Under the pieces are notes generated by a model, which was not told the DNA's origin, did not search any database, and saw nothing but the letters and a program-made list of their open reading frames with translations. A stretch of 64,000 nucleotides of DNA from a virus (lineage: Duplodnaviria; Heunggongvirae; Uroviricota; Caudoviricetes). How positions within the stretch are numbered: position 1 is the first letter of the stretch; each line of letters starts with the position of its first letter. The translations under genes were made by a program, and so were the position numbers. The DNA lies in the IMG/VR virus record IMGVR_UViG_3300046522_000748; one strand, written 5' to 3'. Shown piece by piece: positions 33,080-42,321 of this stretch.

Positions 33080-33103
33080 AAAAAGCCCGCTCAATGGCGG
33101 GCT
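33080..33103 (-). terminator. rho-independent terminator
   Basis: Minus strand: AGCCCGC cattga GCGGGCT followed by TTTTT. Confidence 0.45.
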
Positions 33104-33125: not shown

Positions 33126-33386
33126 TCACATATTGAACGCGTCCAGGGCCTCTTTACAGGTCATCTGGTAGCCGAGCGAGGCTCCTTCTGAATCACCTCG
33201 CATTGGTCCTGTATCAGTCATGACCCAAGGTACTTCGTTTTCACCCATCGTAAACGCTAGACCGTTCTGGTCACAGGCAACCCATTGTGATCGAGAAGAA
33301 AGCTGGTCGGCTGCGGCATACGCCAATCCACAAAGCCCAAGAGCGATGAGAGCCGCCAAGATGCGCAGCTGAATTCGTATTTTCAT
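33126..33386 (-). CDS. small secreted protein (start at MKIRIQLRIL)
   Basis: Signal peptide ALIALGLCGLAYAA. Confidence 0.4.
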   Translation of the reverse strand: MKIRIQLRILAALIALGLCGLAYAAADQLSSRSQWVACDQNGLAFTMGENEVPWVMTDTGPMRGDSEGASLGYQMTCKEALDAFNM

Positions 33387-33404
33387 GTTTTCACTCGATT
33401 GATG

Positions 33405-33563
33405 TGTACCGGTTCTGCATTGGAAACCCATGTGAAGAGACTCGAACTCTCAGATCTCGGCAGTTTGTCCCGACCGTGGATCGCGCGCCTTCCCGGTTCT
33501 GAGTCCCGGTTTAGGTGCCGCCTGCGTCTACCAATTTCGCCACACATGGGTTTCCAATGCAGC
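33405..33563. repeat. hairpin-capped inverted-repeat element (family copy 1) enclosing a tRNA-like gene
   Basis: 20-bp perfect IR CTGCATTGGAAACCCATGTG (33405-33424 / 33532-33551), then the hairpin CCTCCTAGGAGG (33552-33563). Confidence 0.5.
33417..33538 (-). tRNA. tRNA-Leu-like (type II-like) gene, ~122 nt, with ~35 nt extra between D and T arms; no CCA
   Basis: Minus strand: acceptor CCATGTG/CACATGG (7 bp). 5' TGGCGAAATTGGTAGACGC matches the tRNA-Leu D arm. T arm GAGAG-TTCGAGT-CTCTT. I could not resolve the anticodon arm. Confidence 0.35.
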
Positions 33564-33744
33564 CTCCTAGGAGGATGTTTTGGGCAGGGCTGGAGGCAAA
33601 TTCCAGCTTTTCAAAGTGCCTTGGCCACGGGTTACATCACGTATAGCTTAATGAAAAGCAGCCCCGTTATTATGCGACAGCCGTTGCCGATTGAACGACA
33701 TTCCTGCTTTTGAATTATACAATATTTTCTTAAAAATATTATAT

Positions 33745-33838
33745 GCATCGGCAGAATGATTTGGTGATGGATTCGAACCATCGTCCCGGAATACCGCGCC
33801 GCTGATCAAACGGCCCTGCCAAATCACTCTCCGATGCA
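33745..33838 (-). ncRNA. tRNA-like hairpin element (GCATCGG-stem family, copy A)
   Basis: ~19-bp imperfect stem GCATCGGcAGAaTGATTTGG/CCAAATCAcTCTcCGATGC enclosing a T-arm-like hairpin GATGG-ATTCGAA-CCATC and an anticodon-like hairpin. It cannot be folded into a full cloverleaf. Confidence 0.3.
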
Positions 33839-34678
33839 CTCTCGTGAGAGAGTGTGGTCGGCATACGTATGCCGATTGATGCACATGACCGGTGCTTATC
33901 TCCGGCTTGGCGGATATGCCACTCCCAGGCATTGCTGCCTGCCATTTTCCACCTATGCCATGGTTGGCCCAGAGGCAGTAGCGCTTCAGCTAGCGCATCC
34001 ATATGCATCGGGGAGTGATCAAGCACAAGCCAATCACTTTCCGATGCACTCTCGTGTGAGAATGCAGTAAAACGTGTGACACAAATGACCGGCACTGAAC
34101 TCCGGCTTTAAGGCGCCAAATCCACCATGCCGTTTCGGGTTTGCTTCCAGGTGGCAATTAAGCTCTCAGTTATCTGGGCTGCGCATCAGCCTACGCATTC
34201 ATTCGCATCGGGGTGTGATCTGGCCGGTGCTGGTCTCCGGCATTCGTGGTTATCTGGTGGCCTGCAACCTTCAGGCTCTACGAACTGGGCACAACCCCAA
34301 CGTCAGATTCGCATTACTTGGAATCACCGAACAGCTCCCGGATGTTTGTGGTTACGGGAGTGCCTGTCCGATGTGTTCCCCACGATCAAGCTTGCTTGCG
34401 CATCAGCCTACGCATTCAGATCACACCCCGATGCGCTCTCAAAGAGAGTAATCGGGCAGTTAGCGACAGGCTGTCGTGCAGTGATTCTGTGTCCGAAGGA
34501 GGTCGGACCGGCATGCAAGGCCATTACGCCATTCACCCACCTATCGGGCTCTGTCACCCCTTCATAACGCGTTCGGGGTTTTACGCGGCGATCCAGACTT
34601 ACTTTTATATGGGGTTCCAGGGTCGCATCTCGCCCATTTCGTTTTGGCTTACGCCTAATTCTTGCGGTGCATCTGAAG

Positions 34679-34802
34679 CTGTATTGGAATGTCGGTCCAC
34701 ACCATTTTGTGCAATCAACGTCCGGGTGTTCGCCACAATCCGATTGCTCTGGAGATGCTTTTTTAATGACCCGCCGACATTCCGATACAGCCTCTTTCGA
34801 GG
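34679..34802. repeat. hairpin-capped inverted-repeat element (family copy 2)
   Basis: CTGTATTGGAATGTC (34679-34693) pairs with GACATTCCGATACAG (34776-34790), including one G.U pair. Followed by CCTCTTTCGAGG (34791-34802). Confidence 0.45.
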
Positions 34803-35110
34803 TGATCGGGCCGTCTTTCCGGCTGTCGCAGACCAACGATTGAGCCGGTAGGTCTGAACGGCTATCCCTTTATGCGCTTGGGAGTCCAGCGGCCGGTTAA
34901 CCCCGGTCAGGATTCTTTGTGACACTCATCTTACGTGAGGAGTGTGGTATTCGGGTGACGCTGATGGCCGGTACTGAACTCCGGCTTGACGCTCTCCTGG
35001 GCGTGTTAGCGTATTTCGCCTCGCAAGTGGTCTCTCACCACCTCTTCCCTTTCGGGTTGCCCCAGCCAGTTGCGCATCAGCCTGCGCATTCATCAACATC
35101 GGTGTTGCTA

Positions 35111-35198
35111 TGGAGCGGGTACATGGATTCGAACCATCAGCCGCTAAGCCGCCTTCATCCACTAGTAGGATTTGCCCCCGTTGGGCTCGGTTCCCCGC
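35111..35198 (-). tRNA. aberrant tRNA-like gene (~88 nt) with encoded CCA
   Basis: 3' end ...GATGG-TTCGAAT-CCATG-TACCCGC-T-CCA and 5' GCGGGGA (6/7 acceptor pairs). The D and anticodon arms are non-canonical (anticodon-like loop TACTAGT). Likely a pseudo-tRNA or a type II variant. Confidence 0.3.
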
Positions 35199-35203
35199 AA
35201 ATC

Positions 35204-35274
35204 TGGCGCCCCTACGTGGAGTTGAACCACGCGACTGACGCATGATCAGTGCGACCGTCAATCCCTCCAGGGCA
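35204..35274 (-). tRNA. aberrant short tRNA-like gene (~71 nt) with encoded CCA
   Basis: T arm CGTGG-TTCAACT-CCACG; 3' acceptor TAGGGGC-G-CCA; anticodon-like stem-loop ACTGA-TCATGCG-TCAGT; rudimentary D arm. Confidence 0.3.
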
Positions 35275-35416
35275 AATTCTAATGCAAATGGCCGGTACTG
35301 AACTCCGGCTCAGCCAATCTTTTCTGTTAGGCAGTTTCAACGGCATGCCGTCTCATATACCTGTAAACCCTTTTGGCCCATCCAGTTTCTCAGTGCGCCT
35401 CAGTCGGCGCCAACAT

Positions 35417-35491
35417 CTGCATTGGTAGGTTTACCGAATTGAGCCGCGCTAAACGGTTTCCAGTGAACCTCCAATACAGCCTCTTTCGAGG
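35417..35491. repeat. hairpin-capped inverted-repeat element (family copy 3, short)
   Basis: CTGCATTGGTAGGTT (35417-35431) pairs with GAACCTCCAATACAG (35465-35479), then CCTCTTTCGAGG (35480-35491). Confidence 0.4.
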
Positions 35492-35524
35492 CTAATCCTG
35501 CCAGCCGCTTCTTTGTCTTGCCAT

Positions 35525-35770
35525 TTACACGTGCCGATTGATTTTGAGCGTCCATTCGCGGTCGCCATCTTCTGACAGCGCGACCTCGTGAGACTTTTTC
35601 AGCGCTCTGACAATGACGCTCTCTGTGGCCAGGACAGGCTCTTTGTCTTCATCGTCACCAATTTCCGCAGCCAAATACAGCTTTTCTGCCGCCACTTCCT
35701 TAACCAGCGCTTTGCGGGTCGTATAGACAGTGATCTCGTAGGCTTCGTTAACGGTTGTGTAAATCGTCAT
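35525..35770 (-). CDS. possible small acidic protein (81 aa) inside the RNA island
   Basis: Only sizeable ORF in this region with protein-like composition; weak Shine-Dalgarno. Confidence 0.25.
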   Translation of the reverse strand: MTIYTTVNEAYEITVYTTRKALVKEVAAEKLYLAAEIGDDEDKEPVLATESVIVRALKKSHEVALSEDGDREWTLKINRHV

Positions 35771-35852
35771 CAGAAATTCCGTAATCTGTTTGGTGTGCAA
35801 TCGCACAGTGCATTGGGGTGAAATCTGACCGGATGTGATCCCGGCATGTGCT

Positions 35853-35920
35853 GGTGGACTCGAACCACCGACGCGCCTTTTGCGAGGCCGCTCTACCGAC
35901 TGAGCTACGCACTACGCTAT
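35853..35920 (-). tRNA. tRNA-like pseudogene (5' half GCGTAGCTCAGTCGGTAGAGCG plus T arm GGTGG-TTCGAGT-CCACC)
   Basis: Canonical D arm and T arm, but neither the acceptor nor the anticodon stem can be paired. Confidence 0.3.
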
Positions 35921-36029
35921 CTGTTCACCGGGCCTAGGAATCCCGTCACCGTCAAGCCTATTGAGTCACAAACTCACTTTCAGATTCCACCCCAATGCAT
36001 CCCCAAAGGGGCAGTGGACTTAAAACTGC

Positions 36030-36175
36030 ATTAGTGGAGGCAGCGAAAACTACATGCCATGCTTCGGATATTATCCGAGTCAGGGAATTGAACCCCGGAG
36101 ACACCCAATTTGATGCTTGCCGAGTGTTCGATGCTTCCCTAATGCAGTTTTGTTTACAAGAGCATGTTCTGCTCT
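36030..36175. repeat. inverted-repeat element variant (CTGCATTAG ... CTAATGCAG) enclosing T-arm-like sequence
   Basis: 9-bp IR with the same CTGCATT core. Inside lies CCGGGG-TTCAATT-CCCTG. Followed on the minus strand by the hairpin ACAAGAGC-AGAACAT-GCTCTTGT. Confidence 0.3.
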
Positions 36176-36187
36176 TGTTGGGCTATT

Positions 36188-36216
36188 CTAGCGAGACTAG
36201 ATGTCTGTGTCAATAT
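36188..36216 (-). promoter_or_regulatory. sigma70-like promoter reading into the RNA island (TTGACA-N17-TAGAAT)
   Basis: Minus strand: TTGACA cagacatctagtctcgc TAGAAT. Confidence 0.35.
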
Positions 36217-40079: not shown

Positions 40080-40156
40080 TGGAGCCGGTGACAGGAATCG
40101 AACCTGCATAACGATGATTTGCAATCATCAGCCTAGCCTTTCAGCAACACACCGGC
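40080..40156 (-). tRNA. tRNA-Cys (anticodon GCA), CCA encoded
   Basis: Acceptor GCCGGTG/CACCGGC, anticodon arm GATGA-TTGCAAA-TCATC, T arm GCAGG-TTCGATT-CCTGT, discriminator T plus CCA. Confidence 0.75.
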
Positions 40157-41439: not shown

Positions 41440-42321
41440 TTAATCCTTTAGAAACATTCCGCAGCTCGCTTTTACATCAAAGCCGACTTTTGGCACGATT
41501 CTCCAGCTTTCTGCCTTGATCAGCGAGCGCAGGATCTCGGTATTGCGCTGAATGACCTCTTCGCACGGCTCCTTGCCATATTTTGCCGAATATGGGTTAT
41601 AGCGAACGATGTTCAGGTTCACCTTCAGGTCGCGCTCGTTGATCGCATTGGCAATGGCGACCATATCAGCTTCAGAGTCATTCTCGCCTTCGATGAAGGC
41701 GAAATGAATCTTTGGCACTTTATGGCTGAAATCTTGCCATGCCTTAAGCATATCGAGGCCATGTTCAGCCGTGTGCGCTCGGGCCAGCCAACGCTTACGG
41801 AACGATGGGTTCATGCTGTAGATCGAGTAATAGATCTCTGGATGCACCTCTGGAAAAATGTCTTCCAGTCGCAAGTCACCCATCGAGGTTGGAAAAATAG
41901 ACGACACCAGGAATTTGGATTCCAGGCCATGAGCTTGCGACTTCGCTGCCAGTCCATTGAGCAATTGCGCGCTGTCACTCAGCAGCAATGGGTTGTTCAG
42001 TGGCTCGCCCCTGGCCATGAAGTTCCAGTGGATGAGCTTGGCCGGAGCTTGGGTGTCGTAATGCTCCAAGATGCGTTCGGCCTGCTGCATGAAGTCGTCC
42101 ATTTCAGCATTGTCGAATTGATTCTGGCCGGTCGAGGTCAGGTGGCAAAATCGGCACGCTTGATCGCAGCCAGATTGCGAGGACAGGTAGCCAATGATGT
42201 ACTCAGGCACCCGGCGAACGTAACGGTTTTCATAGCGACCGACATTCGGCGCAGGGTACTCAAAGTTGACAGACTGATCCTGCTGACTGAAGTGGGCTTT
42301 GAAAATGATGTTCTGGCTCAT
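41440..42321 (-). CDS. RlmN/Cfr-family radical SAM RNA methyltransferase homologue, lacking the N-terminal domain
   Basis: SSQSGCDQACRFCHLTSTGQN matches RlmN [21 protein letters not shown]. Further matching blocks: MARGEPLNN, VSSIFPTSMG, IEGENDSEAD, LKVNLNIVRYNPYSAKYG, and the second catalytic Cys in DVKASCGMF. Confidence 0.6.
   Translation of the reverse strand: MSQNIIFKAHFSQQDQSVNFEYPAPNVGRYENRYVRRVPEYIIGYLSSQSGCDQACRFCHLTSTGQNQFDNAEMDDFMQQAERILEHYDTQAPAKLIHWNFMARGEPLNNPLLLSDSAQLLNGLAAKSQAHGLESKFLVSSIFPTSMGDLRLEDIFPEVHPEIYYSIYSMNPSFRKRWLARAHTAEHGLDMLKAWQDFSHKVPKIHFAFIEGENDSEADMVAIANAINERDLKVNLNIVRYNPYSAKYGKEPCEEVIQRNTEILRSLIKAESWRIVPKVGFDVKASCGMFLKD

Follow-up and report, generated by a model that had tools for sequence, protein, structure and literature searches.

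A probable non-decoding tRNA-Leu chimera built on a stem shared by phage and megaplasmid RNA modules

What is a sequence that starts and ends like a leucine transfer RNA (tRNA), carries a far larger middle than a tRNA should, and is closed by a perfect 20-bp helix? The question is raised by a minus-strand element in IMG/VR virus record IMGVR_UViG_3300046522_000748 (Caudoviricetes), of which we analyzed one stretch of 64,000 nucleotides (nt), hereafter the window. A preliminary description, made from the sequence, had placed a tRNA-Leu-like gene at 33417-33538 and offered three identities for it: an intron-containing or otherwise interrupted tRNA, a tRNA-like structure used as a processing or mobility signal, or a decaying pseudogene. 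The element is neither a working nor a dying tRNA gene. On balance, we read it as a chimeric, non-decoding mimic of the tRNA-Leu "top half," carried on the conserved handle of a mobile-element RNA.

The originally assigned span proved to be shifted by ~11 nt; the whole unit occupies 33574-33415 of the minus strand and its tRNA-like core 33549-33428. The acceptor strand and D arm, CCATGTG-TG-GCGAAATTGGTAGACGC, and the T arm with the acceptor 3' strand, GAGAG-TTCGAGT-CTCTT-CACATGG, can both be read there as described, and the minus-strand order is CCUCCUAGGAGG-CUGCAUUGGAAACCCAUGUG-UG-GCGAAAUUGGUAGACGC ... GAGAGUUCGAGUCUCUU-CACAUGGGUUUCCAAUGCAG. The unit opens with a small hairpin, CCUC-CUAG-GAGG (33563-33574), directly followed by the 5' strand of the closing helix (33543-33562), which consists of the motif CUGCAUUGG, an AAAC linker, and the acceptor 5' strand CCAUGUG (33549-33543). 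Next come U8, G9, and the D arm GCG-AAAUUGGUAGA-CGC, of type II tRNA-Leu form (33524-33542); an expanded anticodon-like arm of 40 nt (33483-33522), predicted to form ~11 bp with internal loops and ending in a 9-nt loop, GACUCAGAA, that keeps a CUCAGAA (CAG) remnant; an expanded variable arm of 30 nt (33453-33482), then U48 at 33452, the partner of A15; the T arm GAGAG-UUCGAGU-CUCUU, as read from the sequence (33435-33451); and the closing helix 3' strand (33415-33434), with CACAUGG, GUUU, and the motif CCAAUGCAG and no CCA after it. All of these parts lie on the minus strand.

The D arm and the T arm lie exactly 72 nt apart, where ~72 nt had been noted, and this interval is made up of A26, the 40-nt arm, the 30-nt arm, and U48. 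Some 35 extra nt had been attributed to an insertion; they are present, but they are split, with ~23 nt in the anticodon arm (40 versus 17) and ~15 nt in the variable arm (30 in total). The 20-bp helix is likewise real, a perfect 20-nt inverted repeat (33415-33434 against 33543-33562, 20/20 complementary) for which we estimate a chance expectation of ~1e-5 per 64 kb at such spacing. The minimum-energy fold of the element lengthens this helix to 22 bp and contains a D stem of 3 bp closing an 11-nt loop, a T stem of 5 bp closing a 7-nt loop, and two long internal arms between them, the latter being the predicted structure of the 72-nt insert. At -69.4 kcal/mol, compared with -50.6 ± 4.3 for shuffled sequences (z = -4.4), the fold was matched in stability by 0/200 shuffles.

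The regions nearest the helix are those of a leucine tRNA. We compared them with the genuine tRNA-Leu genes of CP136011, the 910-kb megaplasmid of Pseudomonas sp. FeN3W: the T arm is identical to a tRNA-Leu T arm of that plasmid at 16/17 positions and the D region to that of its tRNA-Leu(UAG) at 16/19, and the nucleotides of the tertiary contacts are present (U8, A14-A15, G18-G19, U48, G53, UUCGAGU, and C61). Against the bacterial type II form, represented by tRNA-Leu(UAG) and tRNA-Leu(GAG) of CP136011, the element thus has nearly identical acceptor, D, and T arms and keeps U8, G18-G19, A15-U48, and G53-C61, but it has no free ends or CCA, its anticodon arm measures 40 rather than 17 nt, its variable arm is 30 nt long, and tRNA models miss it. 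Default ARAGORN together with Rfam at gathering thresholds found six tRNAs in the window, the element not among them, and none of the 4227 Rfam models (the tRNA model RF00005, YrlA, and the group I intron models included) matched the element at E values up to 10.

Computational surgery located the departure from a tRNA more closely. When both middle arms were swapped for canonical tRNA-Leu arms, default ARAGORN called a tRNA-Leu(cag), and when the variable arm alone was shortened, the intron mode of the program read the native loop CUCAGAA as Leu(cag). Acceptor stem, D arm, and T arm are therefore of tRNA quality and of leucine type, unlike the anticodon and variable arms, which are rebuilt. 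Run on the native sequence, the intron-aware check that had been suggested did return a call, but only a tRNA-Cys(aca) and no sound tRNA; we judge it an artefact because the program skipped a 47-nt "intron" before the anticodon arm and misread the variable-arm hairpin as the tRNA-Cys(aca) anticodon arm. An interrupted tRNA is not what we found: both middle arms are remodeled, the Rfam search with its group I models gave no match, and the 47-nt "intron" is non-canonical. We also rejected a tRNA intron of either the group I or the bulge-helix-bulge kind on the grounds that the extra nucleotides are divided between the anticodon stem and the variable arm and do not form one loop insertion.

Could the element nonetheless be a genuine tRNA-Leu, made functional by unusual processing and the addition of CCA? 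We give this hardly any credence. Its Leu-like acceptor, D, and T arms, the A15-U48 pair, and the CAG triplet in the distal loop are what such a gene would show, but the features by which RF00005 and ARAGORN define a tRNA are missing elsewhere: the acceptor is not a free-ended 7-bp stem but runs on for 13 more perfect pairs that bury the ends, position 73 is a paired G, and the anticodon arm, with its 40 nt and 9-nt loop, departs from a 5-bp stem and 7-nt loop, next to a 30-nt variable arm. CCA is not encoded, as the preliminary description had observed, while 6/6 of the real tRNAs nearby in the window encode it, and neither RF00005 nor default ARAGORN recognizes the sequence.

The locus is carried, with sequence differences, by four further assemblies, and this allowed us to ask whether the element is decaying. 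Compared with assembly L107, the window is 97.5% identical over the element and 97.6% over the 138-nt leader ahead of it (97.6-100% between strains), 94-95% over the upstream RNA array, 88.0% over an 86-amino-acid (aa) open reading frame (ORF) that follows the element (33386-33126, a gene called in public assemblies), 85.2% over an SPFH gene, and 79.5% over the sequence past the ORF. The flanking protein genes have diverged more than the element has, which speaks against the decaying pseudogene of the preliminary description, and the element is under purifying selection. The substitutions that do occur are mostly tolerated by the structure, falling in loops, giving G-U pairs, or being compensated: the stem of the small hairpin is invariant while its loop reads CUAG, CUCG, or UUCG depending on the strain, the D-loop has one U/C change, two C-to-U changes in the closing helix result in G-U pairs, the T stem in L106 has one compensatory A-U to G-C pair, and the anticodon-like arm is unchanged across the 5 strains. 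A C-to-A change opens the closing pair of the variable arm in L107, L113, and L114.

An inert relic, that is, a tRNA-Leu pseudogene in a tRNA-array region that seems conserved through recent spread of the segment, is accordingly quite unlikely in our estimation. The region is indeed full of tRNA fragments and odd tRNA-like sequences, and the element has no encoded CCA, an abnormal anticodon arm, and, in L106, some pair-breaking changes. A relic, however, would not be expected to exceed the adjacent coding genes in conservation in three independent assemblies, nor to retain a perfect 20-bp helix and intact tertiary-contact nucleotides, and its combination of stem and T arm recurs with unrelated inserts in 40 phage contigs, to which we return below.

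What, then, is the 20-bp helix? It had been taken for an extended acceptor, unusual for a tRNA precursor; unusual it is, but we found it to be the signature stem of a family of RNAs in phages and megaplasmids. This scaffold-stem family, unnamed and defined in this analysis, comprises a 4-5-bp hairpin directly 5' of a helix with a 9-bp base, CUGYAUYGG / CCRAURCAG, that continues in at least 10 further pairs that are specific to each copy but complementary. The element has exactly this arrangement, with CCUCCUAGGAGG ahead of CUGCAUUGG ... CCAAUGCAG and 20/20 positions paired. The family pattern, CCTCNNNNGAGGCTGYATYGG, identified 100 stretches in IMG/VR, and the family as a whole is present in more than 100 phage contigs. 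Modules lie in unannotated gaps of the temperate Pseudomonas phages Aurca01 (PP179334), PseuP_224 (OP795451), and Marin, downstream of a cI-like repressor and on the same strand, and the strand of the motif is that of the upstream helix-turn-helix (HTH)/CI-like gene in 33/33 phage loci carrying that gene; on the FeN3W plasmid, they are interspersed with 18 tRNA genes in 12 kb.

Across the family, the first 9 bp of the closing helix are invariant or show transitions only, often with an A·C mismatch next, while the following 10 bp differ between copies and stay paired. Among 27 distinct helices, both sides change in 12/19 pairs, compensated cells number 60 compared with 17.4 ± 3.3 in shuffles (0/500 shuffles reach 60), and pairing stands at 90.6%, falling to 29-42% after the 3' partners are slid. 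The covariation count agrees with that of a separate earlier set of 63 helices, which had been selected for pairing. The commonest insert, which we call module A (window 34802-34675), has G-C to C-G swaps in its internal helices in 12-13 of 36 sequences. A full-text literature search of partial coverage returned no description of the stem motif or of Proteo-phage-1, a phage RNA motif considered below, and the family is sizeable, linked to mobile elements, and apparently undescribed.

These patterns also bear on whether the repeat acts as DNA, with the 20-bp arms bounding a miniature mobile element of the MITE or REPIN kind as its terminal inverted repeats, or serving as a recombination or single-stranded DNA hairpin site. 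Such a role would suit the outer 9 bp, constant across copies as a recognition site would be, the occurrence of modules with differing cargo in many genomes, and the insertion sequence (IS)-like 544-aa gene inserted beside the element in L106. It is nevertheless distinctly improbable: the inner 10 bp vary between copies yet remain complementary within each, which is not expected of drifting inverted repeats, orientation to neighboring genes is constant (33/33), and the inserts hold covarying internal helices and tRNA-grade arms. No flanking direct duplications were seen on reading the sequence, although this was not a systematic search for empty sites.

Viral contigs were scanned for the 5' motif followed by a T-loop and, 12-28 nt beyond the latter, by the 3' motif. 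The 40 phage contigs recovered contain 32 distinct sequences with at least 10 unrelated inserts, and in most of them the T stem runs straight into the 3' strand of the closing helix without a spacer. Within the 12-28 nt allowed, the gap from T-loop to motif is 15-17 nt in 24/34 cases and 23-24 nt in 7. Its gap of 15 nt, and its T stem set on the closing helix with 0 nt in between, place the element in the tRNA-like subclass, which we delimit by a 15-17-nt gap and a spacer-free T arm. Its closest analogue, on contig L115, sits within a phage tRNA cluster and has a D arm, AGCUCAAUUGGUAGAGC, after the 5' strand, a ~75-nt middle, and a T arm on the 3' strand. Other heads keep the D and T arms with a truncated anticodon arm; tRNA-model scores are 45.6 bits for L134 and 30.2 bits for L111:6082-6153. 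With the middle either truncated or expanded, it is thus the anticodon arm that is cut or enlarged, while the acceptor-T helix and the elbow are retained.

A covariance model of the element, built from four strain variants, ties the two halves of this argument together. Searched with this model, the window yields a single full copy (207.5 bits). The outer part of the model picks up scaffold modules that carry different inserts (such as L025, L013, L077, and L017), and positions 25-148 pick up genuine tRNA-Leu genes on the FeN3W plasmid, with scores of 30.7 and 26 bits. The element is chimeric, a head of tRNA-Leu ancestry on the family stem.

We hypothesize that the body of a type II tRNA-Leu(CAG) was grafted onto the closing helix of a modular non-coding RNA family and kept the acceptor stem, D arm, T arm, and elbow nucleotides. 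Charging and decoding are not expected because the ends lie within 13 extra bp, CCA is absent, and the anticodon arm is about twice its normal length; the buried ends, the missing CCA, and the wrong anticodon-to-elbow distance would likewise keep the molecule out of translation, and it would therefore act through the tRNA top half. The element would probably be transcribed jointly with the 2.8-kb array upstream, and a nuclease, either double-strand-specific or of the tRNA-processing kind, would perhaps excise it at the long helix. The invariant base of the stem looks like a recognition or cleavage site, and it could serve as a 9-bp handle read by a partner, while the L-shaped head might bind, occupy, or recruit a factor that recognizes the tRNA elbow and the acceptor-T helix. 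Since phage early regions and the tRNA arrays of mobile elements are where the family is found, we would conjecture that the mobile element uses it to manipulate host tRNA processing or metabolism, or tRNA-directed defense. A simple decoy for anticodon nucleases was considered and set aside; truncated or expanded anticodon arms argue against it. Among the options of the preliminary description, the tRNA-like structure used as a signal comes nearest, with the structure borne out and the role as a signal one that we infer.

Several observations weigh against this interpretation. The L106 element has three further pair-breaking changes, and recent horizontal spread of the whole array could partly explain the high conservation. 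The Leu-like insert has no homologue beyond five closely related strains: viral contigs and GTDB genomes gave no exact-pattern match, a pattern scan of metagenomes gave a single interrupted tRNA-Leu-like sequence that is unrelated, BLAST searches of phages and plasmids with the whole 3-kb array retrieved other modules and never the element, and the neighboring units (33740-34200), used as a separate query, matched nothing in plasmids. The family is accompanied by no conserved RNA-binding or nuclease gene according to ORF clustering around 100 phage loci, in which the clusters comprise only a CI-like HTH protein, a DUF1654 protein, and unannotated small ORFs. Finally, the promoter-like TTGACA-17-TAGAAT upstream of the array (36185-36213, minus strand, 11/12 consensus matches) and the terminator-like hairpin with a T-run after the 86-aa ORF (33084-33103, minus strand) are matches to consensus patterns only.

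The ORF and the terminator-like site invite a different account, in which the element is a cis-acting leader within the 5' untranslated region of the mRNA for the 86-aa protein, presumed secreted, and acts as an RNase III/RNase P processing site or as a 5' stabilizer that uncouples this mRNA from the array. The helix ends 28 nt ahead of the ATG at 33386, the ORF is followed by the terminator-like site, and we infer that the ~27-bp duplex formed by the long helix and the T stem would be a plausible RNase III substrate. We nevertheless consider a cis-acting role rather unlikely. L106, in which an IS-like gene has inserted just upstream of the element and the downstream ORF has been lost, keeps the element; the scaffolds of phages and megaplasmids precede unrelated sequences, tRNAs, or other modules and not one gene family; and a plain hairpin would suffice for processing, yet the 122-nt head is nearly invariant. 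The inserted gene of L106 (L106:6657-8291, corresponding to window position ~33740) encodes 544 aa on the opposite strand, between the previous module and the leader of the element's unit, and is probably an insertion sequence; L106 also lacks window 34397-34243 along with the 86-aa ORF.

To our knowledge, tRNA mimicry by bacterial non-coding RNA is known from few systems, namely transfer-messenger RNA (tmRNA), the YrlA/Y RNAs, and some RNase P-matured phage RNAs. The YrlA/Y RNAs are the nearest in logic to the non-decoding chimera proposed here, being non-coding RNAs, also found in phages, in which the 5' and 3' ends form a stem that bears a tRNA-mimicking module, and in which, as in the element, the tRNA-like part has no working anticodon arm. 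The common plan of a conserved terminal stem plus a tRNA-like module (PMC4201824) raises the possibility that the element is itself a YrlA-type Y RNA, a partner of the Ro60/Rsr protein, but to this we attach next to no weight. The topology of YrlA is circularly permuted, with the stem standing where the anticodon stem would be and the parts running T, acceptor-like hairpin, D (Chen et al. 2014, PMC4201824), whereas here a stem of a different motif extends the acceptor and the D arm comes before the T arm. The hallmarks of these RNAs are GNCGAAN0-1G close to the 5' end and, no more than ~4 kb away on the same strand, a Ro60/Rsr (TROVE) gene (PMC4201824). This motif is absent from CUGCAUUGGAAACCC, Pfam searches of the 10 ORFs around the locus found no TROVE protein within 4 kb, and RF02553, confirmed to be in the model library, gave no match at E values up to 10.

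The tRNA-like domain of tmRNA resembles the element in its coaxial acceptor-T helix and its reduced or altered D and anticodon region, but a tag reading frame, an alanine-type acceptor end, and CCA are all missing from the element, and a tmRNA search of the window with ARAGORN found none. The P4 CI RNA, the P1 C4 RNA, and the MALAT1 mascRNA are tRNA-shaped elements within longer transcripts that are read by tRNA-processing enzymes and not by the ribosome; their cleavable 5' junction is exposed, and they usually have a CCA-like 3' end. The element differs from these in that its acceptor continues as a perfect duplex with a sequence-invariant base.

A further relationship is with Proteo-phage-1 (RF03044), a candidate structured RNA of proteobacterial phages. 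In five phage contigs, this separate, 82-nt two-hairpin motif precedes a scaffold helix by exactly 82 nt, and because of this fixed distance, the two probably belong to the same transcript, although Proteo-phage-1 covers neither the closing helix nor the tRNA-like inserts. RF03044 scores upstream of scaffold helices include 71.7 bits at L150:9733-9813 and 70.6 bits at L121:3748-3828, while its covariance model has no match in the window. Hairpins of the form AAGCCGGAGUUCAGUGCCGG in the window (near 34108, 34987, and 33908) look like diverged Proteo-phage-1 but lack a covariance-model match.

Compared with the known mimics, the element would represent a different solution, a tRNA body locked on an invariant stem that recurs with many heads in phage early regions and megaplasmid tRNA arrays. 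Provided that RNAs of this design are expressed, they would offer a new handle on the contact of mobile elements with host tRNA metabolism, and possibly with tRNA-targeting defense, and the catalogue of structured RNAs would gain a large family. Both tRNA finders and Rfam 15 are blind to such elements, which now lie in "empty" intergenic gaps of phage and plasmid annotations. A broader proposal, which we offer tentatively and regard as doubtful, is that Pseudomonas-type phages and megaplasmids encode a new modular class of RNA with a logic like that of Y RNAs, consisting of a 9-bp dock for a protein or nuclease and a plug-in head that would recruit or sequester a host factor able to read the tRNA elbow. 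Were this so, the element would be the tRNA-Leu version of a device whose head is often a top half at a fixed distance, and which would reprogram host tRNA processing or blunt tRNA-directed defense early in infection.

Two features of the family's surroundings may be mentioned here. At the end of the RNA region of temperate phages, a conserved Shine-Dalgarno sequence accompanies a minigene of two codons, AUG AAR UAG/UAA (Met-Lys-stop; L001:4590-4625, L110:2725-2745, and ~30 IMG/VR loci), which we take to be reminiscent of the bar minigenes of the lambda PL operon. On the FeN3W plasmid (L111:4460-4590), GCUGCAUU precedes a genuine tRNA-Ser(gct), and its leader and acceptor read CUGCAUUGGAAAGU, which is the scaffold 5' motif; this motif is not found in the other 17 tRNAs of the region. 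The stem motif may derive from a tRNA leader plus acceptor, or the resemblance may be coincidence.

Within the window, the element is the last unit of a 2.8-kb ORF-poor stretch of similar modules (33,400-36,200). Directly upstream is the conserved leader (33575-33712, minus strand), which holds CUGUCGCAUAAUAACGGGG (33680-33662), resembling a motif upstream of other units. Sequence of the type GACAGCCUGUCGYUAACUGCCCGAU is conserved ahead of scaffold units at 34452-34469 and 33662-33680 (minus strand) and at many phage loci; it bears a loose, possible boxA/nut-like resemblance and stands where a lambdoid nutL would be expected. The neighboring scaffold module (33743-33850, minus strand) consists of a hairpin, a GCAUCGG helix, and a mini tRNA-like insert with a T arm, GAUGGUUCGAAUCCAUC, on its 3' strand; its fold (33850-33743) has a z-score of -5.3, and phage contigs L148 and L149 share its design. 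The rest of the array (33981-36151, minus strand) is made up of tandem ~200-nt units, in each of which a GCGCA-GGCUGA-UGCGC hairpin and a CCGGAGUUCAGUGCCGG hairpin accompany a scaffold helix. The scaffold itself is a small hairpin followed by a long helix that begins GCAUCGG or CUGYAUYGG and surrounds a variable insert; besides module A (34802-34675), scaffold modules lie at 34047-34005, 34435-34204, 35491-35417, 35999-35809, and 36151-36022, all on the minus strand. A tRNA-like stretch within module 35999-35809 (35912-35847) scores 27.7 bits on the tRNA model. Two other functions considered for the array were rejected: it is not a sponge for RsmA/CsrA, as GGA and related motifs are not enriched (53 observed, 56.9 expected), and module A does not encode a small protein, as its 49-codon ORF is not kept, with frame-shifted variants and, in L048, a stop at codon 8.

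Other odd tRNA-like sequences were noted in this region and elsewhere. One, an insert of the array at 35190-35105 (minus strand), has the acceptor GCGGGGA/UACCCGC, a T arm, and an encoded CCA and is without a normal D arm; it is 95.6% identical over 45 nt to unannotated sequence by a tRNA-Arg in the N4-like Pseudomonas phage 98PfluR60PP (MH179480, L109). Both this copy and that at L109:2455-2545 have a hairpin loop with CUAG (UACUAGU or AUCUAGA), and ARAGORN calls neither. Two more uncalled tRNA-like sequences follow the real tRNA-Arg of this phage (L109:2670-2870), and one of them has canonical D and T arms and a middle expanded by ~60 nt, like the element, without the scaffold stem. The phage-like metagenome contig Ga0137433_1041161 (L103:1000-1110) carries an unrelated tRNA-Leu-like sequence with an acceptor CGGCGGG and a D arm GCGGAAUUGGUAGACGC, with ~68 nt replacing the anticodon and variable arms.

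The window is part of a 1,136,521-bp Joint Genome Institute (JGI) contig of ~49% GC, and most large ORFs of the window match nothing in Pfam, NCBIfam, or PHROG. The best plasmid relative found for the SPFH protein lies on pMPPla107, a 972-kb Pseudomonas megaplasmid (50% identity), and because of this relative we regard the replicon as probably a giant plasmid of the pMPPla107 kind, poorly sampled and with a Pseudomonas-like host. Synteny of the SPFH gene revealed no relatives among GTDB representative genomes, and the homologue on pMPPla107 has no RNA array beside it. Further along the window, a 293-aa protein (41440-42321, minus strand) is encoded beside a tRNA-Ser and matches phrog_27142 (E = 1e-109); its IMG name is RlmN-like adenine C2 methylase of rRNA and tRNA A37, and it is possibly a tRNA-modifying enzyme that travels with tRNA genes. 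A tRNA-Cys(gca) called by ARAGORN at 40080-40156 (minus strand) scores 32.9 bits on the Rfam tRNA model, against a threshold of 29, and has an odd D region; it may be another non-canonical tRNA.

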